This document shows, in pieces, positions 17,236 to 43,348 of a stretch of 64,000 nucleotides of DNA. A program made the translations under genes and the position numbers. The notes under the pieces are model-generated. The model saw only the letters and a program-made list of their open reading frames with translations. It did not search any database and was not told where the DNA came from. How positions within the stretch are numbered: the first letter of the stretch is position 1; the number at the start of each line of letters is the position of its first letter. This DNA is from Botryllus schlosseri (taxonomy: Eukaryota): contig CM119373.1 of assembly GCA_051294905.1 (NCBI GenBank), positions 3,412,001 to 3,476,000 of the forward strand, in the 5' to 3' direction.

Positions 17236-19221
17236 TCCTACACAGTACAATGCAAGCACATACCCCTATCATCCAACACCATATATTATATGCCACACAC
17301 ACTTCAGAAAGTAGGTTACTGTTCGGATTGGGGCCGGGGTTAGATTTGTGATTATAAAACCCAGCTGTGAGACTTGTACAAACTACCAATCTAGTTAGCT
17401 GACGGTCGACTAACTATATCGGTTATACCTTCAGTTTTGAATTTTGAAAAGTGAGCAGGTCTAGGTCTAGTTGCACAATCTGAAAAGTGAGTATAGTTCT
17501 AGTTCTAGTTGCACATTTTGAAAAAGTGAGGAGTTCTGGTTATAGTTGTGGGTTTCTAAAACCGAGCAGTCCTAGTTCTAGTTGCGTCTGTAGTTTCTGG
17601 TATTTTGAAAATCCACTATAGTTTGTAACTGTCTGTCAGCTGTCGTCTTATGTCGTGCAGCATGCTCAAATGTCAGACAACCATACGTATATCGATTTGT
17701 AGATCATGGCATGAAACAATTTTCACAAAGGCTTTGCAAAGGCATAAACGCATTCGTAACAAAATTCCGATTCCAACCTAAAGCGACAGATCGAGAATAA
17801 ATATACGTTTAATATAAATTACGATTATCGTAGCAGTGGAGAAGTTGGGTAGCATAGAAGTCGCAGTCGAAGCCAGCTATTAACAGATTTCAGGCAGATT
17901 GCAGGGTATGCATATGCACTTTATGCAGTATGCACGCTTCATACATGTCAACTTCACTCTGGAGCACCCAACTCAGTCATAGGCGCGAGTCCAGCTGCAG
18001 GATCTAGGGACATGAAACTACCACGGGTCAAACATATATTACCACTATTATTGTCTTTGCACTGCCTATTTTTGCACACAAGATACGCGGATAGCCAGAT
18101 TATCTAAAATATGATAAGGAATAATAATAGTTGAATGCCGTGAATCCTCGAATAGTGACGAGTATATCGGCTGATTGGTTAAGACTGAGTATTGTAACAT
18201 ATACAATACACATGCAACATATGATTTTAAACAGGGGAAATGAGATGATTACATTGAAATTTGAGTATTAAATATATTTTACAGTATATATTAAGAAATA
18301 AAGTAATGTAAGTGGACAGATAGCTGGTAGCGGTTGGATATTGAATACAGTACTATAATACAGAGGTGTGCAACGGCTAAAATTTGGTCAGAAGAGAATT
18401 ATTGTGCGGCCCGCCAAGTATAGTGCCAATTTTAAATGCTGCCTGTCCCGTGAATTATGTTTCTAATTTAGCTTAAGGTCTGCTTGGTTTGAGTGAAACT
18501 CAAGTGAGCTAAGAAGGGGCAAAACATTCAAATCAAAATAATAAGCAAATGCCGATTGGTCACATATTTTTGACGAAACTCTTTCCATAGGCAGAAATTT
18601 TTTCATTCTTCGAGCGATATACCTCCAGAAATTAATACCGAGGGTTACCAGCAGGGCTAGTCAAAATCCAGTACTTGAGCGGTTCGTTTCTGTATCGAAT
18701 CACTGATAATGACGTCACAACGGTATAAATAATGCGAAAGTTCAAACATGTACCTTTTATGCGATCACTATTAATCTTTTTGACCATGTCTATTTCATTG
18801 CACTTTGTAACAATGCTGTGAATCACGACTACACAGATATGTCATTTGCACTAACGTGTTTCGTATACTGCAATACGACAAATCGAGATTTACAGCCTCC
18901 CTTAGTGGAGAATAGCATCGAAACCTTAATTCTCCTTGATAAATTAACTCTCATATGTAATTTCAGAACTAGAAAAACTCATCTCACATTATTCGATCCG
19001 AATCGTTGGAATTAGTACTCGAATCATTGTTTCCTGCCCTATAGGGGTGCACGCAGGCTTTCAGCATACCTATACTTGTGATACATACAGAAAGCCTATA
19101 GGTATACAATACATACGTGCACCCAGCGGTTTCACCATGTTATTTAGATCTGACCTATTTACGGAAAAAATTGCACACCCCTGGTGTAGTATATTACATA
19201 TAATATGAAGTACACATAGTG

Positions 19222-19434
19222 TTATATCCACGGATCGAGGCAACTTCTGTGATACAGTTGTTGTTTGCTTTCGTTGAGAGCGCGTTCGATGTGTTTCAGG
19301 GAGTAAGCGTGCGGACTGATCAGTTCCTCGTACGGGTAGTTATTCACGGTTCTCACCATGAAGTCCAGGGCTTCGTCGAGATGTCGCGGGGTGTAGTTGT
19401 GTACCCCGATGATCGTCAAGCCTTTGGAGATGAT
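19222..19434 (-). CDS. ADH gene exon 6 (IISKGLTIIGVHNYTPRHL...CLDPWI*)
   Basis: Acceptor ttttctttag, phase 0, ends in TAA. Confidence 0.92.
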   Translation of the reverse strand: MISKGLTIIGVHNYTPRHLDEALDFMVRTVNNYPYEELISPHAYSLKHIERALNESKQQLYHRSCLDPWI

Positions 19435-22400
19435 CTAAAGAAAAGTAAATGATATAACACTTGACAATCAGGGTGGCCTCTGCTGTTCCCTTTCAGATAC
19501 CAGTTCAGAAATGCGGGCTTCGCCTTGAAAAGTGTCATCGTATATTGTTCGGTCGAAACGCAACAGCGTGATACCAAACTTGCAAGACCCGTAATACCTG
19601 AGACGAGAAATTGAGCACCGACTCGGATTTAAAGATTTTGGGAGGATTTGGTTATGAGCGACTGGTAACTATGGGTTCTGGCATGGGATCGCTGACAATT
19701 ACGCATGTTTTTTCGAATGAGGACTTCGATTTTCACACTGTACGAACGGAATTCTTGAATTGGATCGAAAGAACATATGCGGGACTGGATTATGCGGACT
19801 GCCGAGTACGGAATTTCAAGACTTCTGATTCGCGGTTTACCACGGGTTGTACAAATGTATACATGAAGCCAAAATCAAGGCCTTCAACCAATTCAAAGAG
19901 TCTCAACGGGGCCTTTATTAAAACGAAAATTCCAGCAAAATGAATAATAGATTGAGTCATGCAACCGTGTGGAAGCAACGTACGCTTATCTATACTAATC
20001 TACGCCACCAAAACAGGTCTGGCACGGAAATGTTGATCAATCACCATTTTTGAACAGACTTGTACAGATTATACAATTTTCAAATTGCGAAACTGCAGCT
20101 AGAACTACTCACGTTTTTATAACTCACAACCACAACTATAAAACTAGAACTAATGAACTTTAAGAAATGCATTTGAATACAATATCGTATTGAAATGAAG
20201 CCGAATATTTTCGGCTGACACTCGTCAGGTGTAATCCTCACCGATTCTCTACTCTACTAGTTGGTGACGATTACCCCTGACGAGTGTCAGCCAAAACTAT
20301 TCGGCTTCATTTCAATACGATATTGTATTCAAATGCATTGCTTAAAGTTAGAGCTAGAGCTAGAGCTAGAAGTACTCAAAACAAAGTTAGGTGGCCTTCA
20401 CCTAACTATATTGGCAGTAGTCTCATTTTGAAGGGTAACAATAACAACACTCTGGTGGAGCCAGAGTAGGCCAGCCAGCGTACTTGTGAAGTCGGCTTTA
20501 ATACAGCTCCGAAATTTTCCCTCGACAATAGCTATATCTCAGAGATAAGCATGCTGGGTTGAAGAGATTGACCGTCTGATTTATGACCAAATTAGATTCG
20601 GACATAGGATTTTAGCCAATCATGACCTGCTAGATATCAGTGCATTTGAGTCATTGTCTGCTATGGACTTGGAATTTAAGCCTAAATCCGCAACCGGATT
20701 TCATGGCATTGAATATGGTAAATTCGTTCATTGTTGCACTATTCGCGTTATACGCAGCATGCATTGGCTGCATATTCATTAGTTAGTTACTTACTTGCTA
20801 CTCGATTGCAGGATTGGACAACTATATAGATAATTATCGGTTTTACCAAATTGGATTAGAATTAGAATTATTGCTACACATTTTTCCGAATTAGATTGGA
20901 ATTAGAATATTGAATTCGTAAAAATTGAATGAAATTCCGAATTATAATGAAATAAAACAAAAACCAAGTTCACATCATTTCAAATCAGAGAAAACGGAAA
21001 ACGTTTAGACACCAAGCTTGGCCCGTTTCGCACTATACCATTATCCTGTAGCATTTTCAGACAAACCAGAAATTAAATTCGAATTAAAACGAAAGCGTAG
21101 AAACATTTCACAAATTACATTATAATTAGATTACCGGCATTTCATTTCAATTTGTATAATTAGACAGCTAGTATTATTTATCTTTTGATTCAAGTATGCA
21201 TTGTAGCGTACGTTACGTAAGGATAGTATACAGATTTTCTTATTAATTTCGCCGATACCCACATACTACTCAATCATATTATCCCTGCGTTAACTGATGT
21301 TGTACATCATTTACAGCAAGACCAAACTTTTATTATTGGAATCTTTACATTGCGGGTCGTGGTATGTGTTGTTTAGCACTAAATAACAGGGTTAACCGGG
21401 TCGTGACGGTAGTTTCCTGTATCGCCCAGGGTCTTAACCTCGCGTTGCCTTGAAATAATGGATATTAATAAGCGTGCGGAGCCTGTATCGGTGGTATTGG
21501 CGGATATATAAATACACTATTCCGCAAAATTTGCCTCAGCTCAGGCCTCAGTTGTTCAGGTTTTGTTAATAAATATACCGGACAACACATTGTAATATTG
21601 ACATACGTGTTATGTTGAGTATACGTTGCGGAAACGGTTCATTTTCTCGCTACGATATGGCACCATGCGGCCAGGAAATGTATTTTAAGGTGGGTATTTT
21701 ATCAACACGTATGTAAATTGCTATGCCCTTTGGCAATGGCGCTATTTCGAGTGATATTTATTATTGGTGATTATCGCCATTTCATCACCCCCGCCGCACT
21801 GCGGAAACATCAAAGCGATGTTTATCGCTGATTCAAGGGTTGTTAAAAAATAACTATTCCTTGGTGAAATTGCTAATTACACTGTCGCTGTGTCTTTTTC
21901 GTTCAATAAAATTCGCTCGTTTCGAGAGAATTGGTGTCAAATTCATGGAGATTATTTGGTATCTTTTCGACCATACCTATTTTATTGCACTTTGTCACAA
22001 CGCAATTCAGCCCTATTAGTTATAAAGTACCGAAAGCCTGGAGCTTGATTGCCTGTTTGCAGAAATATTCTCAATTTCATGATTCAAAAATTTACACTCA
22101 GCATAATTCTTACTTGCTCTCCTGTGAGGCCCAGGTCCGAGTCGGGGTGAACCAAACCTACTAAAACCAGAGTGCCTCCGTGTCGCAGACTGTTGTAAGC
22201 GTGTTGAATCACATCGGCGTTGCCACAAACTTCAATCGCTGTGTCCACTTCTTCGACTGTAATGGCAGATAACTTTATCAGTGAGCTGACGTAACGTAAA
22301 AGCTACAGTGTAAATACCGCAAGCATTTTCGTTCATAAGCCCGCGTAGCATAGGCGCTGAACTCTAATTTTCCCTAGGTATGCGAGATCGATGACGTCAC

Positions 22401-25400
22401 AAAGGGATGACGTCATAGTGCGCCAGAATTGGCAAATTATCCGACTCGCAAGTGTTCAATATCACCTGGCACTTGTATATGGTGACAAAATTACGATATG
22501 ATTAAGCAGGCCGCGTAGCCAGCCGGCCGCTTGCTGAATTGATTGAATCCATTTCAAATTTACCAAGGTAGCATCAGTTTATTGTGGTTAATAACATGCA
22601 CCAATGCCGATAATACATCGATCGGATCAGTATCCTTGTGTAATATATAAGACACATCACGCTACCATAAGATTACCAACGCGTGCGACTGTGTAGTCAA
22701 TTAGCGAGCTCGCAATCTCCACAACATATTCGCCAACACACGCGCCGACAATCGGGAGATTTCAATCGCTCCGCCTCGAGAACAAACGAATACGCATCTT
22801 CGGCGACGGCTAATAAGGTTGCAGGAATTATTTTCCCAAATAGAAAGTCTGTTCTGGACTCTATTCATTAGTGACTTTGATTTCATAGGAGTTAGAAGTT
22901 TCAATATCAAGAGCCTGCAAGACATTTTCTGATCATTCTGTTTTAGTATTAACGTTAGTCAAAATCAATTACGCCGCTGTCTGTTCACGGTCAGTATGTA
23001 TTTCAATCAATTCCGTCCATGTTCATTGTTCAATGTCTGAGCCAGTCTGACATCACAATCACAGAAGAAGCGATAGTTCCGGCCGGCGCATAAGATATCA
23101 TGTTCCTTCACAGCAGGAGATGACAATCGCAACATTTCGCGCATATAGAAATTGACATCTTTAGTATCGAGTTCTCGGTCTTGTTGCCTCGCGTTGCGTC
23201 TTCTGACGACTCGCGTTTGATCAAATATTCAGGCGCATAGCCGAGTTGTTATGGAGTGTGTTCTATAATGGAATCCGCATCGATTTCAGGTGGTTCAAAC
23301 CTTTCTCAACTTTTATAACTCAAGCCTTGATTCGCATCTTCTGATGGTTATTGGTTATGCTTAAGTATTAGCGGAAATCAAGTACGCATGTACGCACAAG
23401 TCACACATTTTTGCGGACATTCGATGTCAGTAAGTTTCGTGATATCAATCTTTAATCACAACCGATAGATAGGAGCCACAGCATGCTAGGCCGGAGACGC
23501 GATAGTTAGGCCGGCATTGATATATTTCGAACCACGCAGACGCAATTGTGTAGGCCAACGATGTTATCGTGCGGAGGCCAGTGATGGTATAGTGCGCACC
23601 GGGCCTATTGCCGATGCGATTCATCAAGCCAGCGCAACTAGACCTGACGGAGACGGGATAAATCAGGCCTGCGACCTAATTTCGCAATCATCTCAGCGTC
23701 GAGATCGCGTTGCGTTACATTGTGCACAAACCATTCTCGCAAATTGGAAACGCGCTTCCGGCTAATTGGCCGTGGCCGCGCGCAACACTGATATAATACG
23801 GACAACTGAATTGTAACTGAAGGACGGAGTTTTGTTAAGCGCCTGAACGTATTGATGCCGGTTAACTTACGTGTTCAGCAGCACTACGAAACGCTTATTT
23901 CTAAATCGATCAATTCACCACCCAGTCAGTAACAGACCAAACCGAATTCTGGGTATGCCGCATACCCAAAAAAATTCCTAGGTATGCGCGGCATACCTAG
24001 CATACCTGAGTTCAGCGCCTATGCCGCGTAGTACTAGTAACAACCAAGTGTGGGTGTAGTAACTGTATTGAATTCTCTAACTACAGTGTAACTAACTACA
24101 CTGTAGTTAGAGAATTCAATATGGCGACGTGTTAAATATCAGCAATATGGCAACCGAAGATTTTGGTTGTTCGAAGGAGCGATATGATGTCACGATACCG
24201 CATAGCGACTTGAGAGACTGGTGCCTGCGATGTCACCACGGAAACGCACATATAAATAATGAGCGTGTATGATTGTGATATAAGTTGTACTACAGTATAC
24301 GCCAGTGGTCGGGAACCTATGGCTCGCGAGCCATATATGGCTCTTTAGGGTATAAGATATGGCTCTTTGCCAAATATTTATTTTTGTACTGAATTGATCA
24401 ATATTGCAGCGACTTGTTGGTAAATTTCATCACGGCCAGAATAATTTGTCTCGTGGCAGCATATAAGCATGCCTTTGAGAGGTAAAGACAATGCCGTCTT
24501 CAGGTTTAGGGGCTCGGACCACCTCTTTTCAAAATCCTCAAATTTAAATTACTGTCACGCCGACGACCAATATCACTCGCGAATTCTATGTATTAGACCT
24601 GGGGTCGCCAACTCAAAACGGGTCGCGGGCCACTTTTCAAATTTTGTAGCGGCCGCGGGCCGCATAAATTCAATATCGATATTAAGGGGGCAATCACGAT
24701 TTAAAACGCTGTTCTACCTAACATAGGCAATGGGTATAGTGACCACAATAAAGTAATATTTTATTAAAGGAATAAAAATACAACAAAGTACCACTGTCAT
24801 CAATTTCATTTTATTTTAAACTGCGAGCTTTTCACGATACCTAGAAACGCTTTTTGGGACTAGCGAAATACGTAACTAGCTGAAAGACCATCCCCACTTG
24901 AAGCTTAATCTTGTGGAAAAGCCCTAAGCCAGTGGTTCTCAAACCTTTTTTGATATGCCCCCCTATATGATACTGAAAAATTTCGCGCCCCCTTATCGTC
25001 ATATCACAAAATGCATCCATAATGCTGGCTATCCGAACGGATAGTTTGATGGTATGTGAGGTTATGAATGTTGACGAGAGAATTCGATAATATAAATTCC
25101 GGATTATACACAGAGCACTAGCTATAACTATGCATTCGAGGAAAATCGCGCCGAGCGCGAAAAATTTTTTAGTTGAACGCAGCACCACGGCCCTTCAGAT
25201 GCTTTCACGACCCCATATGGGGGACGTACCCTCAGTTTTAGAACCACTTCCCTAAGCAGTTTTCTGGCGTCTCGGTATTGGAAATGTTTGGGCCATTGCA
25301 CGTCAATTTCAGAATTTCAAAATGTTTTCTTAGCTTTCTTCCGAAATCTAAAATCATGTCGCGGGCCGCAAAATATGACCTGGCGGGCCGCATGCGGCCC

Positions 25401-28400
25401 GCGGCCCGCGTGTTGGGGACCCCTGTATTAGACTCTAAATCTTTAATTGTGCGGTACGTTGATTTAATCAAAGAGCATAGCATACATGGCGACGCCCATT
25501 TCAAAATGCAGTTTTCAAATACACATTGTCATCCTGATCTACGGCGCGAAATGAACTGTTGTGGATGTGAAATTCATAATTACAAACTCGAATTACAAAC
25601 AACGCCATAGTTATCCACGTTCTTGATTGGTAAGTAAAGCTCTGTGTAGTACTGGCGATATAATGTAGGCGTGTATAGCGCAACGTTATGTTACCACCGA
25701 ACAGACATGGGGTAATCGCGATTAGTAATCGTAATCGATTACGACGATTACAGCATTTTGAAGTAATCGTAATCGCAATCGATTACATTCGAAAAAAATC
25801 CGAAGTAATCGTAATCGTAATCGACTACTTCCCATATCTAATCGATTTTTTTGTGAAAGAACGATTACTTTTTGTTTGTACAAGGACTATGACATAAACT
25901 GAATATTCGTGAACAAGAATGAGATAATATACAACGTTAGCGATAGCACAAACGTTTGTTTTCAAACGCCACTGACTCATTATTACGTCAGAAGTATTAG
26001 CTCCGCTCGTCATTGCGTAAGAAGTATCCCATTCCACACATGGTAAACAGACATGCGATGGACATAGTAGTGTGATTGTAAGAACACCCCCGTGGTGTAT
26101 ATCAGGTTATCAATACACTACAGAAGCCCCTACCTCGCAGCAGGATATTGATCACCACTCTGCCTATAGTTTCAAATAGTAACTTATGTATTGATGTTTG
26201 GTTGTGCTTAGTTAAACGCAGTTTACCGTTGTTGCTTGGCGAGCAGGTGGCCTAAGAACGCACGTGCACCTGACGAAGATTCGGAATTTTGTACTCGTCG
26301 AATAAAACATTGCAGTTTCCACAACGAAGCATTACAAATAAACAGCTGCTGATATATATCATAACCGAGCCGTGCTTAGCCGTTTCTCGAAACAGCAGCT
26401 CGCAGTATATGTATTAAGTTGAAGGCAGAATTTTTATGTTCACTATATCTTATTCTCATATAACTACTTGAAACGGGCGTCAATCGTTATTTCACAGTTC
26501 GTTACTTGGCATTTGGACCTGCCGCCATAACCATCCGCTTATATAGCCTGACATGTTAGCGTGGGCTGTAGCTAGAATCAGCAATTCAGCCAAAACAGCA
26601 ATTCGTCCCCCTATCCAACCGTTGGTCAATTTTCAAATCTGAATTTCGTCAATAATATTGGTAATAGCATTATATTACAATTCATTTATAACCTCTCTCA
26701 GCCCCGAGTGTCAGATTTACCTGTAGAGCTGGTGCACGTAATTCATAATCATAGCATCTGGTATGTTGCTATAATTACTTTATTGTATGTTGTTAATTCG
26801 CGACCAACAGTCTGTTGTATAATCAAAAGATATTGTACTCGCCCAAACGTAGCAGACTAAAAGAATATCTTTTGTGAGACGCACACACAAATTGCCATGG
26901 CTTTATTCGTTTGTGGATGCGCCCGGTGGCATTTGCACGCGCACCCAGCGCGGCTATTGACAATGGACGAATACCCTAAGTTTCGGCCAAGGTATTTCTT
27001 TGGTATCACATCCTGTGGAGTTGCGTGTTGGCCGAAACTGCATATGTCTTTTGGTGTGTTGTGGGATCGTGGCGCGGTAATGACCGGCTCCGAAATGCCT
27101 GTTCCCATAAAACAGCCTATGCATGTTTTTTCTTGAGGGGAAGAGGTACGCATTTCAAACCCAGCTATCTACTGGAGCAGGGGTCACCAACCGTTTTGAA
27201 AGAAAAAGCTACTTCTTGTGTAGTGTGTACTGATTATTGCGACGACCGGCGGGTTGCCATTTACTCCTGCCGTTTATCCGTGTTCAGTTGGATTTCTTCA
27301 CTTAGAGTAAGACAATCAGAGCACTGGGCCGGGTTTCCGCCCCTTACCAAGAACAAAAAACGCTCACTCGCCGGGACTCACACCAGCTCCTCCGGGCTCA
27401 GTTGCGTTGATGCAGTGCGGGCCGAAGCGCCAATCTCCGCGTCGAGACTCGGGAATATTAACTATAGATTCCCGTTGAGCCGCCGCGTGGGCGTAGACAA
27501 GCAATGCCCCGAGCGACTGCGTTCGTATCTTCCTTGGGGTCGGCCGACCCATGTTCAACTGCTGCTCATATGAAACCAGCTTCAACTTTCAAATCTCTCA
27601 TTTGGATAGGCTATTTGCTACCGCGACCGCGGGCGACTCATTTGTTCCGCGTTGGCGACCCCTGTACTATAGAGACATTTGAATCGCAAAGCTCGAAGAA
27701 CATTTTCAAGAATTAATTAAATTCTCGAAAATACTCTATAATTTATGTTGGTTTACGAAATACTTTTGAGTCCCCTTCGAGCACGCTCCCCACTCTATTA
27801 AGGAATTTGGGGTGCGGCAGGTAAAGACCTGCCAATCGTTGGATGCGACAAATCATCCACTATAAAGTTGGGCAATTGGTATATTATGACGTAATAAGCA
27901 AATGACGCATGATGTATGATGACAGTTGATATCTCATTAGGCCTTTTCATCGCAATCCTTGTATTGTCTTCCAATATATCATTTAAGATTATAGTCCTAA
28001 GAAGCAAAACAAATGTAATCGTGAGTAATCGTGATTACTTTTCCAATGTAATCGTAATCGTAATCGACTACTTCCTGATTTTGCTGTAATCGTAATCGTA
28101 ATCGTAATCGCGTGATTCTGAAGTAATCGTAATCGCAATCGATTACATTCATAAAGTAATCACCCCATGTCTGCCACCGAATACTTTGAGAATTGAGAAG
28201 TCGATAAGTATTAAGATTTTCCGAATCATTGTGACAGTCACATTCGATTAATATCAGTTATAATATATTCTAAGCTACTTACGATGGATTGCGTTATCAA
28301 TGGTGAGGCTTGGCGCCCATCAGTGCCTTACCTCTCGTTTCGAGCTTTATTTTCGATCAATATATACCAGTTTTTACAGAGAAAATATGGCGCACACGAG

Positions 28401-31400
28401 GAATCCCATATAGTGAGTTCGAATAAGAGCTACCATGACGTCATGAATTTTCAATAGTGACGTAACAGTTGATTGGCATGTATGGCTCTTTGGGAGTTGA
28501 GATGGAACAAATAGGGCCAATATGGCTCTTCGGACAAAAAAGGTTTCCGACCACTGGTATACGCAGTACGCATACCCTGGTCCGTGGATATTTGAGCATC
28601 AGCATGCGACACTTCGGCATGCGACACATGAGCATGTCGCATTTGTTTCAAAAGCAAACCGAACAATCAAGATAGAGTCAGTGGTTTTTAACAGGACTGT
28701 CTTACAGAAACTTCAACAGAGCCACTGTAACACGTTTAATATCAAAAAAGAAGCATTAAATGAAGTTTCCAATATTCGCTTTGGAGCTGCATACATTGGC
28801 GGTAATTACTTGTGAGTTAATTTTGATTTTTGAAGCTACAACTTCCGTGTCTTCAAATTTTATCGACCAGCAAGCTACAAAGGTTGAGAACCATCAGCCT
28901 ATATATCGTTGGAAAGAAAACATTTCTTCCACAGGTGAACCGATATGATTTTGTCACCTTATTCGAACCCAGGCCCAAATTCAGTTGATGTCAAGTCATG
29001 ATCCCACTCCAGCAACATCATGAGTTTCGTAAAATTTCTTATGCACCTATATTTTTTATGTAATCCGAGAGCATCCAAAGTAGCATGTCCCGGCAAATCC
29101 TAATCCGGTGATGAGAACTTGATCCGAACTCGACAATAATTATCTCAATGGAAATCTGGATTATCGGCCGCAGATCACAATCCGCGGCCGTTTGCACATA
29201 TAAGCTAAGGCAGGGTCGGGCAATTAGTTTTTTCCGCGGGCCAAATGAGAAGCAGAGAATAAGTTGGCGGGCCGATTCAAAAATCTTACCTGTATTCTCT
29301 AGCGAATTAATTTTATTTCTAGGAAGAAAGATGTGAATTACACTGGTAATAGATGCTGCTCAGTGGATGAGTTGATATTAGGGAATAAGAACGTGATGGT
29401 TAATTACCAAAAAATAATATTTATTTGCCGTCCTATTTCGTAACAGTGTTAAACATGATACATTTTGAACTCTTTTTAAACCCTATCCGCGTTTTTCTAT
29501 CAAGACATTGAAATGTATCTGGGATACTACAAAGCGTATCGTCTTGGTCGCTGCCTTCCGAGCAGTGTGCAAGTGCAGCTTGGCGAAATAGATTTGTTGT
29601 TGAGCGAAGCTTGCAGTTCTTCTAAAATTAGTCCTCCCATGACGGAGTGTATGTTTTAGTGATTTTGTCATGAAACCGACTTGAATTGAACTCATCCAAC
29701 ATGGCGACCTGCTCGGCTTTAACTAATAAAAAAACGGGTTTATCCCCGACTCCAGTAAAATTTAGTGCTCCAAACCTACTTTGAATTTCAATTTTCGGCT
29801 TTCTTTTTTGACATTCATCCTTTAAGGGCGATGATGAGCCATAGTAATCACGGGCACTGATTGGCTTGTTATACGAATTAGGGATTTGGAAACATTTCAC
29901 GTAACAAATTCAAGGACAGGCCGTGTAATCCGCAATCCCGCCTTCCATGACATTCCACCCATTTTGTTGCTTGCTTTTTCTATACTATATTGCTTTACTT
30001 TTCATTTAGTGTGCATGCCTCCTCTTTACATCGCCTAGCTAGGCCAAGGTTGGCGTCTGATTCCATAGCCTCCTAGTCGCTTCGACACCTTCCTTTCTTG
30101 TCATTGTATCGCATTTTTATGGTGTATTGAACTGATGAAATTGCTAATAAACCAATGATGATGATACTGATGATGTGACAATGGCAATAAAGAAGGTTTA
30201 GTGACTTCTTTTGACTTTAATTGCTATAATTTGCTACCATGACTATATTTTGAATATGCCTGGATTGCCTGCGAGGCTGCGTAATCGCGGCATCTTAATG
30301 AACAAGCTTGAATATAAACGAATTTTGGATTCACTTTATGCCGACCATGGCTTTAGTTCATGCAGTAACATTCAAAAGTAGATTCTACGTTTTTAATTTT
30401 AAGCAACTTTTCGCGGGCCGCACTTTTCCCAGGTCGGCCCCAAGGCTTATCAGTATAAGGCCGGACAAAATCGAGTTCCTGATTGATTTGATTACGAATT
30501 GAGTACTTCGTGTCGAGTCGAGTATCCGAATATCACTTCGCATCACGTCATAACATGACGCGGGAAGTTCAAATAAATGTACCTTTTATGCGACCGTGTC
30601 AGTTCTTCAGCACATTAATTGTAATTTGGTATTTTTCGACCTATTTCATCGCACTTTGTGACAATGCCGTGGGTTGATCACGGCTTCACAGATATACCGT
30701 TTCCGCCAATGTGTGTAGCTTTGTATTACATTTTTGGTATGCTGCAATACGACCAATCGAAGTTTAAACCCTTCGACAGTGGAAAATAGTATCGACTATC
30801 GAAACTATAATTCTCGTTGATAAGTACCATTGATCATTACGCAACTCACTCGAACAGTCATTCTCCCAAAATCGCTGCGCATGAACGGGTTTCGCGCCAA
30901 ATCTCTCGGCGACTTTCAGGCGACCGCTGTCCACGTCGCTGCACCAGATTCGCTCGTAGCCCTTGTCCCTCAACACGGCGCAAGTGTAAATGCCCAGCAG
31001 GCCGGCACCGAATATCAAGGCGGACTTGTCCTGTACGCCAGTCCTATAACGAGAGCGGAGATGGTCACGGATATCGATTTAGATTTGAAATACAAAGCTT
31101 ATTCGAGTAGTCTTGCACACAAATTTAGCTAGTTGACGGTCAACAACCTACTAACTGCAAGTTTGACGATAGCACAGATAGGCTTAGGCAATTAATGATG
31201 GATGTAGATTTTTTTTTAATAAAGATTCGTTTGAATTTTCTACTAGTTGCTGACGATTATACCCCTGACGAGTGTCATACGAAAATGTATGTGTTATAAT
31301 CGTTGGGTTATATTTTTCATCTGAACAATTCACACACAATGTACAATGCGATAAGACACAATGCGATGTAATGAACAGATAGGAGGATGTCGAACGGAAC

Positions 31401-34400
31401 GCAAGCAGTTGCGATCCTTTTAATCTAACATCCACCTCGGCCTAGAGTGCCCGGTGTCGCAGTTCATTTCGATGTCGATCTTGTTGAAGCCGCGGCCCTT
31501 TCTACTAGTTCTTTCCATTCCTTGTGAGTGTATTATTCCGCCGGGTCTTTTTCTGGGCTTTTTGTCGCCGCAAGGACGGAAACGGTGGGGGAAGAGGAGC
31601 CCAGATAAACCTCCGACGGGAATCGAACCAATCTGGCGAGCGCTTATCGTTACCACTGCGCTGTCTTCATTATGAATATATTTTTAATTATATATTGAAG
31701 TTCTGTACCGCTGAGCAGACTTGGACAAGACATTTCTAATGTAATTTCTGGTTTTCCTGAGCATGTTACGGAAGAACTGTAGCCTATAGTGCGAAAGGAA
31801 CGAAGCTCGCTGTACTTGCCGTTCTCACGCTTATCAGAATCAGCTCAGATTTTATATGAACTGAATTTGATTTTTGTTGCATGTCTTTTGCAAATTCAGT
31901 GATTCTAATTCTAATCTTATTGGGAAAAATGAGTAGGTATAATTCTAACCTAATTTGGAGGAGCTGAAAGCTTTCTAGTTGCGGAACTCTGTACTGTTCA
32001 GTGCTCACCTTGGGCCAATAATAGGTCAGGTCGGGGCTTGCTATATTCGTATATATCGTAATATCGTAGGCCCCGGTCTGGTACAACCATATTAGACCAT
32101 GGTCCACCTGGATATGCCTCACCTGGCCTTCTCCGCAGCATGCATCACAGTGGCTAGAGCGCAATTGATGGGAGCTGCTACCTTGTCCGATAGCGCGTCC
32201 GATATAGGCACGATGTGATGTCCGGAACCCAGGATTATGTGAGACGCGTAACACCCGTTGAAGCCTTGGTTTACTGTTAACGGCGAGTGACCGACTTTTT
32301 CGAGATGGACGCACTTCTGAGGCATTTGCACCCTGAATTGAGAAGCTAACAAGTATCAATGGGAGTTTAAGGTGATGTAAGGCAGCTGCAAGAGCCCACC
32401 GGCATTTATTGCATTTACTACGCTAGGTAAAATCGCGGTACTCGTGTTAGAACAGACCTTGGACATTTTACGGCCCGAGGGCCAAGTCGGGCCCGCCATG
32501 CGATTCTGACCAGCCCGCGCAAAGTTACTTGGAATCAGAACATAAAACCTACTTTTTAACGTAATGCGTAGATTAAAACCATAGCATGTATAAATTGTAC
32601 GGCACATATCAACGTTTACTTTGAAGCCTGTTTATTTACGTACTATGATCACGTGACCATTGACCAATGAGCATACGTACAATCCATGGTTCAACAGAAG
32701 GTCAATATAACAAATTTTGTCGCAACAAATAAAGTCAAAAGTCTCTATTTCCTTATAGCATAGTTTAAACTTTTCACCAGAGAATATAGTTTAAACTTTT
32801 ACCTCTGCTTGCTAATATATTCTCCTAGTTCTTATTTGACTAGACGGGAAAAATAGTTGCCCACCCCTGTAAAGCTGTACAAGTAAATGCTTATGAAGTT
32901 TTGGAAATGCGGCTTCAGCTATAGATGTCTTATATTTTGAATATCGACTGAATATATCTGCTGGTTATCGGTAAAAGTGCTAGTTATCGGTGATATCCGT
33001 CGGATTTAGTCGAAACACAATGAATACCAACAGTAAAAACATGAACTGCAAGGTAATCAATAATAATTATGGTGATTTTTTTACAAAATTGTAGCGTTAG
33101 GTCAGATAACGTATAATATATCTTGGTAACGATATTTAGGAAGTAAGACCCCGATAGAACAGGTGGCGTGATCTGCTATGTGTGTCGTGTAAAATAACAA
33201 TAGGAACTAATACATGTAACATACATCGTGTACGACCTCGCAATGCTCGCATTTATGCGATATATATGTGCATGGGATACAATGTATATTCAGTTCATTC
33301 AATTGATTGATTCGATTTCGAGTCGTTGTACGTTTACAACGATACAACAAAATGCATGTCGGGAAGACAGTAATAAAATACATTGTCCGTGTCATCAATT
33401 GGACGTGGGTGGAAGACAGGCTCTGTGGTACGTTAGCCAACAAGCCGATCACTGCCGGTCTGCCCAAAGTGAACGGGCGTCGGGATCACCATATAACGCA
33501 GGGCTAATGTCTATTGTTGATGTTAAAATTGCGTAATCTGACTGCGAAGGCTACTTGTGATAATTCGCTGTGTCTATTTCACTTTCGACGGACCGGCAGT
33601 GAACGGCTTGTTGGCTAACGTACCACAGAGCCTGTCTTTCACACACGACTGCTGCTGTTGAACGTTCTTTCAGCATTCTTGGCAGGCTAAAGAGAAAGGA
33701 CAGACTCTTTCTATCCGCGAATGTAGGAAAGGGCATAGTTTATTTTTGTCCTTGATGTTTTTTGCGGCATATACACCGACTCATGATATACATACGCAGC
33801 ACACACGATCTGTGCATATGCATACCATGAGTGCATGACACGCATATGCCGCTGGACAAGGAATGTGCAGATAAGCCTTTTACGGGTTTGTAAGTCTTGC
33901 ATAACCCATCCGGCCTCCATGCTATCCCAGTAATGCATGAGCGCCAAGCGGGGAAGTCATGGATAGCAGTGTTACTCGTCAGCTATTTGGCCTGACCAGG
34001 CCGGGGATCGGACCCACGACCTTCCGGTCGATCAAGCAGCCGGACGCTTCACCATTACGCTATCTTGTCTTGTCGGAAAGTATCTTTCGTCGTACTACAA
34101 CATATTTCAATTATTTCTATGTCATAATGCGTGCTGTATAATTACTGGAATACTTCATATATAGGTCCAAATTACGCTAAAATAAAGTTTTTTTCGTGAA
34201 TAAATTCGTCAGTTTTCAAGTCAAAAAAGTTTTATCAGGCCAAACTACTTTGTAAGGACAGACAGTTCCAACCAGAGATGAAGATAAGTAGTACATTTAC
34301 AACATTATGTCCGAAAACACCTAATTTACATACATAACGGCCAAATGCTGTCAAAATATGTTTTTCGAGGTCAAAAAAGTCAAAATCTTGATTTTTAGGT

Positions 34401-37400
34401 GAAGATCCTCCGTTTTTTGTGTTAAAAAATCGCCATAATAATAATCATTAATCATAGTCTTACCTGCATCGTTCACAATTAAAACACGACGACGTAATGG
34501 AAAATGTAACGCGAGTTCCTGCCGGCAACGAATTATTTCTCTTATCAATTACTATTTCGCCCACTGCTTCGTGTCCAAGAACAACGGGGGTGATGCCGTG
34601 GCGTTTTCCTGGCAAAAATTGGCAGGGAGTTGATCTGGATGTAGAAGTGTTTTACAGGAGCAAGGGGAACTGGGCTGTGGTTGACAACATAGCAGATTAG
34701 TACGAACTACCAATCTACGTAGTATAAACCGTCAACTATAACCAGTGATTTCTGAGTTGTTCTAATTCCAGTTCTAGTTGCGCATTTAAAAGAAATATTG
34801 AATTGCTGAACAACTGGAACTGATGTTGTTGTTCTGTAGTATTCATAGTCGACTACTATGGTAATTTACACCAGACCCATTTTCTTCATTTTATTCCGTA
34901 GCTGCCGACCTGTCGCACGGCCCACCTCTAGGCTATTTATAAGTCACCGCTTACACGGATGATATGGCGAGGAGGAGCCTTGATAAACCCCCAACACTTA
35001 GGTAGCAAATCTGGAGTTGACCTTGGTCGGACTCGAAACCGCAGCCCCTTGATGTTGCAGCATTGGATTATACCACTACGCTCTCGCCACGACTGATACC
35101 GGTTGTGTGGTGTTCTTGCAGATATTGCTAGCTCAGAGTCATCACTACTAACAGTGGCGTAGCCAGAAGTGGGTTTGGGGGGGTTGAATTCCTCCCATTT
35201 CAAACTTCTACTCATGCTCATGTGGAAATCAGTTGCTTCATAATTAGTTAGCGTATAATTGAAGGAATGTCGGACTCGGAGTTCCGTGAAGAAAATATTA
35301 GGAGACGGTGTGTTTAATGTTGTCGGAATCGGTATGTTGAAATCGACAACAGCCCTCGTTCACTGTATATTCCCGGTGCCAATAAGGTAGTTGCACCGAG
35401 TCGGAAGCCACGAAGACGGACAATGTCGTACTTGCCGGCAACAAGAAACTGTTGAACATTTCCTCGTCCATTGCCACTAATATTCAAGCGAACGGGAGCA
35501 GCTGAAATGTGCTGCTCGGCCACAAGGCGTGTCATTCTCAATAGAAACACGCTGACCCATCCCGCCATGATCTACCCAGCAATCGAATTTGATTTCCTGA
35601 TCGGAAGGTACATTTAATTGAATAATGCAAAAAGGATCGACCTGGTGCGCAAGGTCATTGCGGCCGACCGCCATAATTCGATATAACAACAATAATTAGT
35701 TGCAAGACTTGATCAGATTTTGCAGATCATACGCTGGTTTCGATTGCAACCAGTGTGATATTTCTGAGTGCATAGCCAGGCCCGAGGTATTTGCAACACC
35801 GTCTGGTGAATGATATAAAACAGTGGCTCTCAACCTTTTTGACCTCGCGGACACGTAACACTTCAAAACCAATATTTCGGAGCGGTGAACCTCCAAAAAT
35901 CAAAACTAACCGTCAATTTAATTAGGTACATGCAATTCAAACGTAATATTTGGAAACTTCATTTGATGCTGCATTTTTATAATTAGATATTTTACGTGGT
36001 GACGTTGAAGTTTCTGCACGGCGAAAATCGCGAAAGCATTTTAAAGACTATAACTTGACCGTGATTGTTCACTGTCGTTTGAAAGAAATGCGACTTCGAT
36101 GTTTACCAAAACGTGTAGTATTGTACAGCCAAGTGTCGTTTGATTGCACTGCCGTAATTTAACGAAGTTTGTTTGAAAGTCTCCATGGCTTTCACGTATA
36201 ACTTGTGACTTGTCCGAAACGAGTAGTATATATGCTACTTTTAAACAGTTTCGTACACCATTCGTACCATTACACCAAAGTAAACCTTGAGCTCTCTGTT
36301 ACAACACCATGCAGAAAATACTTTCCAAACTTCTAAATCCATTGAAAATTTGATGGTTTATTTCTCGAATTATTTCTCGACTTTTAGCATTTCGGAATTG
36401 AGGTATAAAATTCTGATATGCTTGGCGGACCGGAAGAAAACCTGCCACTGACCGGTGGCTGAGAACCGCTGCTATTAAGGAATGCAGTGTGGCCTTGCGC
36501 AGTGGTTGTAGGGCAGAATTGTAATCGGGTCGTGTGCTAAGAGCCAGGTATTGCAGCCTGATGTAAAAGAGAAATAGGGGATAATATTTCCAATTCGAAT
36601 CCGAAAAGACTGACCAGACTTACATTTATACAGTACTTGAAAAATCGTCAATGACTCAAACTGCGAACGGGACATTATTGTATAAGTCCAGTTATTTTCT
36701 CGCTATTTCCGTTGTGTAACTTTTCAGAGTTCAAACACCCGAATATGCCAGGGATATTTTTGTGTAAGACAATAAAGCACGCTTGATTCACTGCTTCATT
36801 TTATGTTTTTTTTGTACCGTTACAGACATTCATGTTTAGTTGGCCGGAATAACAGGCAAATGTTCGCAAGTCCTATATCATCCAATTGTTATAGCTATAA
36901 CGACAGGTTAGTACACTTTAGACAAGAGCAAGTGTTAAGTATTGCCAGTGCAAGTTGGAACGCTTTTACTGTGGCTACATACACTGACAAAGCAGAAGGA
37001 TCATACAGCGTACAATTGCACGTTAATATCTCATTGCTAAGCTGCTACTTATGAGGTATTTTCAATGCTATTACGTCCTGTTAAGGAGAGCTTAAGGTTG
37101 ATTCATTAACGGTCGTGTGTTCTGATGGCGAGAACAGTGTTTTCTTGGGTATATCATCGCAACATATGTTAGTGTAGGTATAGCAATAAATGGTTGATGT
37201 CGCTGGTTAGATTTCTTAGAACATTCGATAACGCCCAACATAACATGTTATAAAATGCGAATAGTGAAGCTTCTCGTTGCGTTTACCTTTACGAATGATT
37301 GAATTCGCACCCGATTGAATAATGCATATCTTACCTAGTATCGTGTGCATGTCAGATCCGCAAATGGTTGCTAAACGTACGCGCAGCAGAACTTGATTAT

Positions 37401-37494
37401 CCCGAACTTTTGGACTGTCCAACACTTTATCAAACACCCAAGTCGGATCGTGGTCTAAGCCAGTGAATATAACCCTAGTTATAACCCCATCCAT
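19222..37494 (-). CDS. Six-exon gene for a Zn-dependent alcohol dehydrogenase (MDR superfamily), HpnZ/TIGR03366-like; join(37494-37335, 34608-34464, 32332-32123, 31043-30850, 22256-22114, 19434-19222); 354 aa
   Basis: All five introns are GT..AG with compatible phases (1,2,2,1,0), and exon lengths 160+145+210+194+143+213=1065 nt. The spliced protein has LATICGSDMH (catalytic Cys), LGHE, structural-Zn C-x2-C-x2-C-x7-C (CFNCERCRVQMPQKC), AAPINCALAT, Rossmann GAGLLG and C-terminal LTIIGVHNYTPRHL. Confidence 0.92.
20156..20349. mobile_element. Inverted pair of Penelope pLTR ends (~81-bp arms) with degenerate hammerhead cores
   Basis: Arms 20156-20236 and 20269-20349 are near reverse complements and match 45487-45535. 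Confidence 0.85.
22114..22256 (-). CDS. ADH gene exon 5 (EEVDTAIEVCGNADV...GGTLVLVGLVHPDSDLGLTGEQ)
   Basis: Acceptor ccattacag, donor CAA|gtaag; typical MDR 'D-x-A-I-E-x-x-G ... GG-x-LVLVG' segment. Confidence 0.92.
22349..24023. mobile_element. Non-autonomous hAT-type element in ADH intron 4
   Basis: TIR CATAGGCGCTGAACTC; TSD CCGCGTAG. Confidence 0.9.
24599..25425. mobile_element. Nested hAT-type MITE containing 24930-25249
   Basis: TSD TATTAGAC; inner element has TIR CAGTGGTTCT and TSD CCCTAAGC. Confidence 0.85.
27178..27664. mobile_element. hAT-type MITE carrying 28S rRNA-derived cargo
   Basis: TIR CAGGGGTC(A/G)CCAAC; near-TSD tactggag/tactatag. Confidence 0.8.
27261..27621 (-). pseudogene. 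Diverged 28S (LSU) rRNA fragments, two non-contiguous segments (27261-27329 and ~27338-27621)
   Basis: The plus strand matches antisense LSU motifs recalled from conserved regions: TTACTCC(T)GCCGTTTA..., TTTCTTCACTT...TCAGAGCACTGGGC, GACCCATGTTCAACTGCTG.TCA.ATG.AACC, ATTTGCTAC. Confidence 0.8.
29960..30175 (+). mobile_element. LINE 3' UTR copy (same family as 8908-10700)
   Basis: ...ttgctaataaaccaatgatgatgat tail; similarity to the reverse complement of 8908-9040 and 10370-10450. Confidence 0.75.
30850..31043 (-). CDS. ADH gene exon 4 (TGVQDKSALIFGAGLLG...AERFGAKPV...)
   Basis: Acceptor gttatag; GxGxxG NAD-binding motif; donor TCGA|gtgagt gives the phase 1 needed by exon 5. Confidence 0.88.
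31233..31307 (+). mobile_element. Solo Penelope pLTR fragment with variant hammerhead core
   Basis: tctactagttgctgacgattatacccCTGACGAgtgtcatacGAAA matches 45471-45513. Confidence 0.7.
31410..31665 (-). mobile_element. tRNA-derived SINE-like element
   Basis: Minus strand CAGCGCAGTGGTAA...GGTTCGATTCCC (A/B boxes); shares GGAGGTTTATC-.GGCTCCT with the first SINE family. Confidence 0.55.
32123..32332 (-). CDS. ADH gene exon 3 (VQMPQKC...AAPINCALATVMHAAEKA)
   Basis: Acceptor aattcag, donor AG|gtgag; phase 2/2. Confidence 0.92.
33870..34064 (-). mobile_element. tRNA-derived SINE, second family
   Basis: Minus strand GATAGCGTAATGG...GGGTCCGATCCCCGGCC head followed by a CTTCCCCGCTTGGCGCTCATGCATT core-like segment. 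Confidence 0.6.
34464..34608 (-). CDS. ADH gene exon 2 (KRHGITPVVLGHEAVGEIV...CFNCERC)
   Basis: Acceptor tttttgccag, donor AG|gtaag; GHE motif. Not reported in this frame by the ORF track. Confidence 0.92.
35821..36471. mobile_element. hAT-type MITE in ADH intron 1
   Basis: TIR CAGTGGCTCTCAACC / GGCTGAGAACCGCTG. Confidence 0.65.
37335..37494 (-). CDS. ADH gene exon 1 (MDGVITRVIF...LATICGSDMHTIL-G)
   Basis: ATG at 37494; donor CTAG|GTAAGA; phase 1. Confidence 0.9.
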
Positions 37495-38196
37495 TTTGGC
37501 TAACAAACGACCGTAAATAATATGCAATATGATTCACCGACTGGGTTCAATTATTCTGCAAAACTAATAATCTATATTTAAAATTTCGAGTATCATCATT
37601 TCCGCGATCGTAATCCACAGCAAATCCCACTTGAGCTCTGGCTACCGGGATATGATGGCACAGGCTTACTTGAAATACACCCTTGTTGAAAGTGCTCACG
37701 GCTCATGCTCATTGCTCATATCCATTCATACCGCAACGATTGATGAGTCGCGCATCAGCAATTATTTCTGATACCGACGTATACGCGACACGCGTGTACA
37801 GAATTCGAGGAGGGTTGGTGCGATGACATGCAAAATAAGGTCAAAAACATGCAAAATAAGGTCAGTCGCGACATGCAAAATAAGGTCAGTCACATGCAAA
37901 ATAAGGTCAGTCGCGACATGCAAAATAAGGTCAGTCCGCGCATAAATCCAAATCTATATTTCAATTACAAATCCAACTCTTTCTCTTATCAACAATAAAT
38001 TTAAAATATCTTTCCTGTATAGTAATTTCATGTTCGAGATTCCTTATCTATATCCTAAAGCTGAAGATGTTTCAACAAAATACAATGAGACGATTATTAC
38101 CATTACGAGGTGATTGCGTGGTCGCATCTAGAATATTAACAGTCCGTGTATAAATCCAAATATTTACTTCAAATCCAACTTTTTTCTTTGCGCCAC

Positions 38197-39330
38197 TGAC
38201 CTTATAGATTATTTTGCTAGCGACTGACCTTATTTTGTATGCGACTGACCTTATTTTGCATGCGACTGACCTTATTTTGCATGTGACTGACCTTATTTTG
38301 CATGTCGCCACTGACCTTATTTTGCATGTGACTGACCTTATTTTGCATGTGACTGACCTTATTTTGCATGTGACTGACCTTATTTTGCATGTCGCCACTG
38401 ACCTTATTTTGCATGTGACTGACCTTATTTTGCATGTGACTGACCTTATTTTGCATGTGACTGACCTTATTTTGCATGTCGCCACTGACCTTATTTTGCA
38501 TGTGACTGACCTTATTTTGCATGTTACTGACCTTATTTTGCATGTGACTGACCTTATTTTGCATGTCTCCACTGACCTTATTTTGCATGTGACTGACCTT
38601 ATTTTGCATGTCGCCACTGACCTTATTTTGCATGTGACTGACCTTATTTTGCATGTGACTGACCTTATTTTGCATGTGACTGACCTTATTTTGCATGCGA
38701 CTGACCTTATTTTGCATGTGACTGACCTTATTTTGCATGTCGCCACTGACCTTATTTTGCATGTGACTGACCTTATTTTGCATGTGACTGACCTTATTTT
38801 GCATGTCGCCACTGACCATATTTTGCATGTGACTGACCTTATTTTGCATGTGACTGACCTTATTTTGCATGTTACTGACCTTATTCTGCATGTCGCCACT
38901 GACCTTATTTTGCATGTGACTGACCTTATTTTGCATGTGACTGACCTTATTTTGCATGTCGCCACTGACCTTATTTTGCATGTCGCCACTGACCTTATTT
39001 TGCATGTGACTGACCTTATTTTGAATGTGACTGACCTTATTTTGCATGTCGCCACCGACCTTATTTTGCATGTGACTGACCTTATTTTGCATGTGACTGA
39101 CCTTATTTTGCATGTGACTGACCTTATTTTGCATGCGACTGACCTTATTTTGCATGTGACTGACCTTATTTTGCATGTCGCCACTGACCTTATTTTGCAT
39201 GTGACTGACCTTATTTTGCATGTGACTGACCTTATTTTGCATGCGACTGACCTTATTTTGCATGCGACTGACCTTATTCTGCATGTCGCCACTGACCTTA
39301 TTTTGCATGTGACTGACCTTATTCTGCGTG
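38197..39330 (-). repeat. Minisatellite array of ~50 units, 21 bp (CATGCAAAATAAGGTCAGTCA) and 24 bp (CATGCAAAATAAGGTCAGTGGCGA)
   Basis: Directly visible tandem units; a short opposite-orientation array lies at ~37826-37936. Confidence 0.97.
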
Positions 39331-40259
39331 TAGCGACTTATTGCGACCTAATTTTGCATATCACGAAGACCTATAAATTCAGGGACTGGTATATTATTAT
39401 TATTATTACAACACACAACAGTGGTGCTTATAGCCCGAATAGGGCTTTGTGCTCCATGACATCACATTTTATCACACAGATCAATGCATTTCTTCATGAG
39501 CAGTCTCTGTATCTTCAAGGCTTTCATCGGTTCTTTATCGTCAAATTATAGCTCGACCCACTGTCATATCTGGGCTTTATAAGTCACCGCAATTGCAGTG
39601 AGGTCGGCGATGAGGAGCCCGTATAACCTCTGACACATAGAAGTGGTCCGAACCGGGATTCGATCCACTGCCATTGGTGTCGTGGCGCTGGTGCTTAACC
39701 AACTACGCCACTCGCTTCCCAAGGGACTATGGTATATAATTTTTGTCATGTTTCACGCGGAATTTATGTACGGCGTGACCATTGACCAATCTGCTTCCAC
39801 TCAAGTCTAGTTCAATATATTTCAAGAAGTGGTTGTGTGATTCATGCGTGAAATTTGAGGGCACATAGTCGCTCATATAACGGTTTCGTCACAGCAAATA
39901 TAGCGCAGCAATGCGTTTTGAATTATACGATCTACCACATTTTCAGTTGCCTTCATAATGGCGTGAAGCGTCACCCACACAATTTTAGTTTCAATTTGGA
40001 TCATCCGTATTGTTTAAATAGGACAATAAACGGAGTAATTACCATGAACTGGAGGCGAATTTTTTTAGTTAACTGCAACCCTTCAGAAGCTTTCATGCCC
40101 CCAGTTAAATAACTGGTATAGAACCTTGTAACAAAGTTATTTATAACATGATGCGGACGATCGAGTTGTCAAGCTGTTTGAAATACATTTCTGCGTGGGA
40201 TGAAGTAACTAACATAAACCGAGCTCTCTGCACATTCTGCATATTTTCATCATTTTAAA

Positions 40260-40660
40260 ACTGCGATACAATGAGAAGATAGGAATAGGTGTCGAAACGA
40301 CTTGGAGTAGGCTAAGTCTTTGAAATCAGGCACCCGCCTTAACCTAGGCGAAGTAGAGAAGAGGCATATGCACACTAAATGAAAAGTAAAAGAAGATGAT
40401 ATAGAAAAATGCGGTGGCATGTGGCGGCTGGCAAGATCGATATGTTAGTTCGTGGTCCGGTAATCCTGAAGTCTGACTAATAGTAGGCCTATTCATCTAG
40501 AAGAAATTGCTTGTATTTCGACTTGAATGCGGACATGCTCGGCGAATGTCGGATAGCCGGGAGATGCTGTTCCACCACTACAGGTCTGGCAACTTGATAG
40601 CGCTATGCGTTTTCTTGTATTCCGCCCTGATCATGTGGTAGTTGTTCTTCGTTTACGCAT
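40260..40660 (-). mobile_element. LINE 3' end copy (same family)
   Basis: ttgcttgtatttcgacttgaatg... matches 10535-10630; 3' UTR matches 8965-9040. Confidence 0.75.
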
Positions 40661-43057: not shown

Positions 43058-43348
43058 GTTTGTTTGTTTGTTTTCGAGGTATTCATGGTGTGTGTCGACT
43101 ACTATGGTCATTTACACCATGCCAATTTTCATCGGTTTTATTCCGTAGCTGCCGACTTGAAGCACCGCCCACTTCTAGGTTTTGATAAGACGTAGGCTAC
43201 ACCGCTTACACAGATGATAGGGCGAGGAGGAGCCTAGATAAACCTCCAACACTTGAGTACGAATTCTGGAGTCGACCTCGGTCGGACTCGAACCCACAAT
43301 CCATTGGTGTTGCAGCCATGGATTATACCACTACGCTATCTCGCCACG
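43058..43348 (-). mobile_element. tRNA-derived SINE (related copies ~34840-35091, ~39575-39715; tails at ~7500-7610, ~10030-10130, ~56328-56445)
   Basis: Minus strand: A box TAGCGTAGTGG, B box GGTTCGAGTCC, (AAAC)n tail. Confidence 0.8.

Follow-up and report, generated by a model that had tools for sequence, protein, structure and literature searches.

A six-exon gene of the ascidian Botryllus schlosseri as a probable member of an old eukaryotic branch of the phosphonate dehydrogenase PbfG

The bacterial family described by the TIGR03366 model is now known as PbfG, a Zn- and NAD-dependent 2-hydroxyethylphosphonate (HEP) dehydrogenase characterised in September 2026 (Piazza et al. 2026, PMC13576164); previously, HpnWXZ had been a proposed pathway only (10.1101/2020.11.04.368217). 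PbfG of Cellulosimicrobium protaetiae (WP_154797266) converts HEP to phosphonoacetaldehyde (PAA) with NAD+. Its kcat/KM for HEP is 88,500 per M per s, compared with 290,000 for the reverse reduction of PAA and about 7 for isethionate; aminoethylphosphonate (AEP) is an inhibitor and not a substrate, and threonine elicits no appreciable activity. The equilibrium lies towards HEP unless PhnX takes away PAA. Bacterial pbfG genes nearly always lie in degradative clusters, Actinoplanes carries biosynthetic pbfG genes, and Table S2 of the same paper names proteins of Brevifollis gellanilyticus and Verrucomicrobium BvORR106 as PbfG. In an AlphaFold3 model of the enzyme, Zn is held by Cys45, His66 and Cys166 and the substrate by Ser47, Arg56, His124 and Asn298, and Arg288 of the other subunit "may" make a long-range contact (PMC13576164). 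Neither the text nor the supplement of that paper contains the strings "eukaryot-", "metazoa" or "invertebrate", and "animal" is present a single time, in a reference title. Here, we describe a gene with a PbfG-like product in a 64,000-nucleotide stretch of Botryllus schlosseri DNA (assembly GCA_051294905.1, contig CM119373.1, positions 3,412,001 to 3,476,000; referred to below as the window).

The gene comprises six coding exons on the minus strand of the window, which sum to 1065 nt and encode 354 amino acids (aa) and a stop codon, with no internal stop. All five introns (2726, 2131, 1079, 8593 and 2679 nt; phases 1, 2, 2, 1 and 0), which follow codons 53, 101, 171, 236 and 284, begin with GT and end with AG, and the exons have a GC content of 45–58% versus 40.5% for the window. 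The joined product aligns without gaps to the Logan protein P0001 (76.3% identity over 354 aa) and to P0005 of Styela clava (58.0% identity over 352 aa). The gene is real: its GT-AG introns and the gapless match to P0001 confirm the initial annotation, which had read it as an intact, intron-containing gene, and the motifs listed there are found in the joined protein. We found no further copy within the 64-kb window and neither AATAAA nor ATTAAA in the 1 kb downstream of the gene.

Scored singly, all six exons have TIGR03366 (HpnZ_proposed) as their best model, and they tile it in order (positions 1–25, 28–81, 85–151, 155–206, 222–267 and 269–308 for exons 1–6), so that this exon-by-exon match is not due to chance. 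For the whole protein, P0001 served as a proxy (76% identical to the window protein). It reached 305.4 bits on TIGR03366 versus 118 bits on the threonine dehydrogenase model NF003808 (cut-off 380) and 101 bits on TIGR00692 (cut-off 458), in a scoring for which 17 families, a sorbitol model not among them, were listed; it also exceeded the cut-offs of PF08240 and PF00107. The proposed assignment to an HpnZ-type family rather than to threonine dehydrogenases is thus upheld. Local profiles gave the joined window protein 389.5 bits when built from 19 bacterial proteins with PhnA and PhnY, 299.0 bits when built from six actinobacterial proteins and 166.0 bits when built from eight sister-family proteins; its identity to bacterial proteins is 32–47% and to the animal set 40–76%. 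The predicted structure of P0001 (pLDDT 89.7) shows a medium-chain dehydrogenase/reductase (MDR) fold that is closest to TM0436 (1vj0; TM-score 0.88, 24% identity). The same protein is the best match of the animal profile in the PDB (159 bits, 24% identity), solved threonine and sorbitol dehydrogenases reaching at most 120 bits at 22% identity. Matches in the ESM Atlas were confined to generic bacterial Zn-dehydrogenase clusters.

Active-site columns were mapped through the actinobacterial protein L081, not through WP_154797266 itself; as L081 matches the published numbering at all eight positions (45/47/56/66/124/166/288/298), these columns are fixed. The window protein holds all seven modelled core residues, namely Cys45, Ser47, Arg56, His66, His117, Cys159 and Asn297, with Cys45, His66 and Cys159 corresponding to the catalytic Zn ligands Cys45, His66 and Cys166 of PbfG; in addition, it contains a four-Cys structural Zn site (Cys95, 98, 101 and 109). 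All 81 bacterial rows and all six over-cut-off actinobacterial rows carry the complete set of seven, as do 34 of 44 rows from other eukaryotes; none of the eight sister-family rows does, and all eight lack the Arg/His/Asn set (Arg56, His124 and Asn298 columns). Asp208 of the window protein occupies what we take to be the NAD-specificity position. Gly stands in this column in P0028, P0029, P0054, P0087, P0093, P0131, P0166 and P0022 (rotifer, Seison and Stylophora orthologues), where it may mark a shift towards NADP.

Homologues were named from the best 120 of 1117 and the best 120 of 1074 matches, with 28 of 150 representatives looked up. Among the matches listed are tunicates (Styela, Ciona, Clavelina), amphioxus, echinoderms, hemichordates, cnidarians, a sponge (Sycon), Lingula, annelids, rotifers, Seison, acanthocephalans, five arthropod genera and three protists (Pigoraptor, Arcella, Diplonema), most of them labelled threonine- or sorbitol-dehydrogenase-like or bearing no name; no vertebrate, insect, nematode or mollusc name appears among the matches listed. 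In a bootstrap tree of 47 rows (LG+G4), which also underlies the approximately unbiased (AU) tests, the window protein, P0001 and Styela form a group (100/99) that falls inside the tunicates (100/96), and the internal branching follows known groups (Ambulacraria 96/80, cnidarians 95/91). Twenty-two animals form a clade with Pigoraptor and Diplonema (98/94), and the eukaryotic proteins form one with the paper-listed PbfGs of B. gellanilyticus (L039) and Verrucomicrobium BvORR106 (L049; 100/98), leaving the actinobacterial PbfGs outside. The AU tests reject a PbfG clade restricted to bacteria (p-AU 0.009) and a grouping of tunicates with bacteria (cost 31.6 log-likelihood units, p-AU 0.019); they do not reject a single animal clade (p-AU 0.29), and a clade of all eukaryotes (support 59/69) is neither established nor rejected. 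A second, quick mixture-model tree of 79 rows unites 32 animals, Pigoraptor and one further row (Shimodaira–Hasegawa-like approximate likelihood ratio test 86) and places Diplonema elsewhere. Because the window protein nests with animals and a transfer into tunicates is rejected, the gene must have been present before the sampled animal phyla diverged, and it may be older still. We therefore regard it, from sequence, as the probable ascidian member of an old eukaryotic PbfG branch.

To place the family in its bacterial gene context, GTDB genomes were scanned with the animal alignment, and the best 80 of 543 confirmed loci, L039 and L049 among them, were compared. These loci are not independent, as they come mostly from Verrucomicrobiota; excluded from trees and counts were L089, which comes from the unpublished genome G092 and underlies no claim made here, and the duplicate loci L087 (of L042) and L098 (of L059). 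PhnA occurs in 37 of the 80 loci (two tested, both over the TIGR02335 cut-off) and a PhnY-like gene in 34 (28 tested, each scoring best on TIGR03250 at 501–633, under the cut-off of 635.65). Both are present in 29 loci, and 24 of these contain neither PhnW nor HpnW in the retrieved stretch, a layout that has been read as HEP-specific (PMC13576164). Other neighbours are PhnZ-like genes (8 loci), HpnW (7) and PhnW (3). At least one of eight phosphonate genes lies in 53 of the 80 loci and in 35 of the 46 loci of at least 10 kb, and clustering with phnX or phnY-phnA is seen in 45 of the 80. The expectation of phosphonatase-like neighbours was thus not borne out, since the nearest bacterial relatives mostly adjoin PhnY/PhnA instead. 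A DUF5690 gene, encoding a membrane protein like those of the major facilitator superfamily (MFS), is found in 29 of L001–L080, often as the next gene (e.g. L052:7091-8335) and also where the locus lacks any other phosphonate gene; a GlpT-like MFS transporter takes that place in 22 loci. The DUF5690 protein is a candidate HEP transporter.

Judging from descent, residues and context, we consider it likely that the window protein interconverts HEP and PAA, in one direction or the other. The initial annotation had guessed this reaction, which has meanwhile been measured in the bacterial family (PMC13576164). By analogy with the bacterial enzyme, the catalytic Zn on Cys45, His66 and Cys159 would bind the alcohol oxygen of HEP, Ser47, Arg56, His117 and Asn297 would hold its phosphonate end, and a hydride would pass from the C2 alcohol to NAD+, yielding PAA; Asp208 suggests a preference for NAD, and the second Zn, on the four-Cys site, would be structural. 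Because the equilibrium favours HEP, net oxidation would need a PAA sink, and a C-P hydrolase such as PhnX could pull the reaction forward by consuming PAA. We would give even odds to the catabolic direction, in which the window protein would oxidise HEP in a salvage role; most likely, the animal, a filter feeder, would thereby recover phosphorus and carbon from HEP in its diet. PhnX and PhnW have been reported from coral genomes (10.64898/2026.05.06.723128; PMC4878875) and from bdelloid transcripts (PMC3499245), and AEP biosynthetic genes from Acropora (PMC3640398); for ascidians, the literature searched yielded no comparable report. The AEP richness of marine invertebrates, which had been invoked in favour of a phosphonate-related role, is a weak argument, as AEP inhibits PbfG and is not its substrate and as no mollusc is among the named matches. 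The analysis itself establishes how the gene is built, where it falls in its family, which residues it conserves, what surrounds its bacterial relatives and that its origin is ancient; substrate, direction, a dimer and a partner enzyme in the host are inferred.

A number of observations weigh against this proposal. The active-site residues of PbfG come from an AlphaFold3 model and not from a crystal structure or mutants (PMC13576164), and the papers retrieved contain no assay of an animal protein from the PbfG group. No partner gene was detected in the 64-kb window (tblastn with ten partner proteins, best E 0.21), which says little for an animal gene. Twenty-seven of the 80 bacterial loci, many of them short contigs, show none of the eight phosphonate genes. 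Moreover, the 305.4 bits of P0001 lie under the TIGR03366 cut-off of 328.1. However, L039 and L049 also fall short (307.5 and 312.1 bits), which means that a score below the cut-off does not exclude PbfG function and that TIGR03366 captures only part of the functional family; the six over-cut-off matches found all come from the actinobacterial sample.

Further points concern the substrate. The Arg288 column is occupied by Ser287 in the window protein, with Lys288 adjoining, and by Ser in P0001; Arg is the residue there in 27 of 32 rows from eukaryotes and in 72 of 81 from bacteria, where it is not invariant; we treat the contact as accessory rather than defining. In addition, the window protein departs from the residue kept by at least 90% of bacteria and at least 75% of other eukaryotes at nine positions, including F113E and Y115V beside His117, and the branches leading to its stolidobranch lineage are long (0.26 + 0.34). 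Ten of the 44 eukaryote rows lack one or more core residues, and hemichordates, several arthropods and one Lingula paralogue have another residue in the His124 column. One Latescibacterota locus (L021:1321-2706) carries a gene for a SauS-like acylating sulfoacetaldehyde dehydrogenase (488 bits, cut-off 600) beside its PbfG-like gene, a pairing that may point to an enzyme recruited to isethionate or to an acylating fate of PAA that would be new. Together with the trace isethionate activity of PbfG (PMC13576164), these features would suit an enzyme that is a PbfG by descent but whose substrate drifted, in the ascidian lineage or in animals at large, to another small anionic or polar alcohol, such as isethionate/sulfoacetaldehyde in taurine turnover. 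We consider such a drift rather unlikely, given that the window protein retains seven of seven core residues, that Val at position 115 is also the state in four of six actinobacterial rows, that the Arg288 contact only "may" form and that a SauS neighbour was seen in one locus versus PhnY in 34.

As to the other proteins mentioned here, the PbfG-like gene of L021 encodes all seven core residues. At least one core residue is missing from P0015, P0037, P0033, P0172, P0174, P0181, P0186, P0262 and P0176, which represent a hemichordate, a crinoid, several arthropods, one annelid and one Lingula paralogue; eukaryote rows of this kind are candidates for a changed substrate or for faulty gene models.

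The enzyme might also run in the opposite direction and reduce PAA, either to supply HEP to host glycans or lipids or to clear reactive PAA arising from AEP transamination. Indeed, bacterial PbfG is more efficient as a reductase, its equilibrium lies on the HEP side and pbfG has biosynthetic representatives in Actinoplanes (PMC13576164). However, the bacterial genes reside almost exclusively in degradative clusters, neither PEP (phosphoenolpyruvate) mutase nor a decarboxylase was among the recurring neighbour clusters annotated in the 80 loci (not every open reading frame being scanned), and no report of phosphonate synthesis in ascidians was found in the literature searched, which included part of PMC8708635. 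We therefore hold a reductive role to be unlikely.

Four sequencing runs were aligned to positions 17900-37750 of the window, namely X1, a set of assembled contigs whose RNA status is a guess, and three raw-read runs, 3–13% of each of which was read. An X1 contig of 704 nt matches 32489-32122 and, right at the exon 3 donor, departs from the genome; the 336 letters that follow are exons 4 and 5 minus one shared base. A second X1 contig begins with 30 unmatched letters and then matches from the exon 6 acceptor (19434) down to 19014, and a third spans 37386-37641 (exon 1 and upstream), such that the 5' untranslated region (UTR) may extend to at least 37641, provided that X1 is RNA. These breakpoints fit splicing of exons 3–6, in a partial and indirect way; none of the 15 joints listed, out of 223, belongs to this gene, and the joints of exons 1–2 and 2–3 were not seen in the runs aligned.

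The aligned runs also hold points against a functional gene. Expression looks low, the start of the 704-nt contig lies within intron 2, 157 nt from its edge, and none of the three raw-read runs has any depth in the bin that contains exon 1. A silent or decaying gene would account for the contig start and the empty bin, perhaps one separated from its promoter by a foldback-like element at ~37808-50834, inserted ~310 bp upstream of the start codon. We deem this very improbable in view of the open frame, the canonical splice sites, the full set of core residues, X1 contigs that cover exon 1 and the 3' exons, and a terminal branch not appreciably longer than that of P0001 (0.15 versus 0.13 as computed). 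Read alignment is swamped by intronic repeats, 97–99% of the aligned reads in two bulk runs continuing into unlike sequence. At ~31140-31801 and ~33788-34449, depth rises to 1700 per strand versus ~1 in the exon bins, and the reads extend into other sequence, identifying abundant transcribed repeats; Rfam gave no match in the window, these repeats included.

That the protein is an ordinary threonine or sorbitol dehydrogenase, as the NCBI names of its orthologues have it ("L-threonine 3-dehydrogenase-like", "sorbitol dehydrogenase-like", "SORD"), has next to no probability in the light of the TIGR03366 versus threonine dehydrogenase scores of P0001, the distance to the solved enzymes and the inability of PbfG to use threonine appreciably. 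Equally hard to credit is a recent, tunicate-only transfer from a bacterium with later intron gain, for which the overlap of the bacterial and animal identity ranges might speak, as the tunicates group with other animals, the internal branching matches known groups and the forced grouping with bacteria is rejected under LG+G4; of the two origins initially put forward, ancient inheritance stands and recent horizontal acquisition falls.

What is new here is a eukaryotic branch of PbfG that was previously unrecognised; the chemistry itself and the orthologue sequences were already known. No report of a eukaryotic PbfG or HpnZ was found among the top literature results, with most subscription journals not covered, and in a review of 2023, phosphonates are described as "even more cryptic in eukaryotes" (PMC10574752). 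The window gene is not special to the Botryllus genome, the family being common to many invertebrates, which suggests that animals may process carbon-phosphorus compounds themselves. A PbfG-like activity would provide a precise, assayable hypothesis for a family that occurs in about ten invertebrate phyla and is misnamed threonine or sorbitol dehydrogenase. A wider proposal, that animals inherited a host-encoded HEP-mineralising route (PbfG plus PhnX) from unicellular ancestors, is doubtful at present. If true, sponges, corals, ascidians, echinoderms and other invertebrates would directly consume a major phosphonate of marine dissolved organic matter, and vertebrates would have lost the HEP-mineralising step.

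Table 1. Coordinates of the PbfG-like gene and of the arrays in the adjacent foldback-like element (window positions)
Feature	Coordinates	Strand	Remarks
Exon 1 (coding part)	37335..37494	-	160 nt; start codon, catalytic-Zn ligand Cys45, Ser47
Exon 2	34464..34608	-	145 nt; Arg56, Zn ligand His66, structural-Zn Cys95/98/101
Exon 3	32123..32332	-	210 nt; structural-Zn Cys109, His117 (= PbfG His124), Zn ligand Cys159
Exon 4	30850..31043	-	194 nt; glycine-rich NAD-binding motif (184-189), Asp208
Exon 5	22114..22256	-	143 nt; remainder of NAD-binding domain
Exon 6	19222..19434	-	213 nt; Ser287 (PbfG Arg288 position), Asn297 (= PbfG Asn298), stop codon
Probable 3' UTR, minimum extent	19014..19221	-	X1 contig spans 19434 to 19014
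Tandem arrays of foldback-like element	37825-37936, 38209-39331; 48956-50225, 50705-50816		

The foldback-like element upstream of the gene is ~13 kb long and has mirror-image arms of 21/24-bp tandem arrays (Table 1); its ends, at 37811 and 50830, are inverted. One 9-mer stands in identical form at 37799 and 50835 and nowhere else on the plus strand of the window, as would be expected of a target-site duplication. No frame resembling a transposase was recognised within the element. It contains a 177-aa open frame (44855-45385, plus strand) that has no Pfam match at 1e-3 and that, we presume, resembles the GIY-YIG endonuclease of Penelope-like retroelements. Further along, an exon-like frame at about 53950-54095 (plus strand), flanked by AG and GT, probably belongs to a neighbouring gene; a 53-aa frame there (53929-54087) has no PDB match, and the longer frame around it has no Pfam match.

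Among described systems, the window protein is most like PbfG (WP_154797266), with which it shares the PF08240/PF00107 MDR architecture, the Cys/His/Cys catalytic Zn site, the four-Cys structural Zn site and the equivalents of Ser47, Arg56, His124 and Asn298, and it nests among the paper-listed PbfGs. It differs in that its gene is eukaryotic and has five introns and no operon, in having Ser at the equivalent of Arg288, and in its identities of 35–42% to actinobacterial members, ~42% to L039 and ~41% to L049. TIGR03366 is the best model for the six exons and for P0001, even though the latter stays under its cut-off. PhpC/FomC-type PAA reductases (PF00465) catalyse the same reaction (PMC13576164) with an unrelated fold and are encoded by a distinct gene. 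TM0436 of Thermotoga maritima is the closest solved structure by both profile and fold, but its His124 and Asn298 columns are Ile and Val in the profile alignment. Finally, Zn-dependent L-threonine 3-dehydrogenase and sorbitol dehydrogenase, the origin of the database names, belong to the same MDR superfamily, but the threonine models score at most 118 bits, and while the third Zn ligand of these enzymes is an acidic residue, that of the window protein is Cys159.

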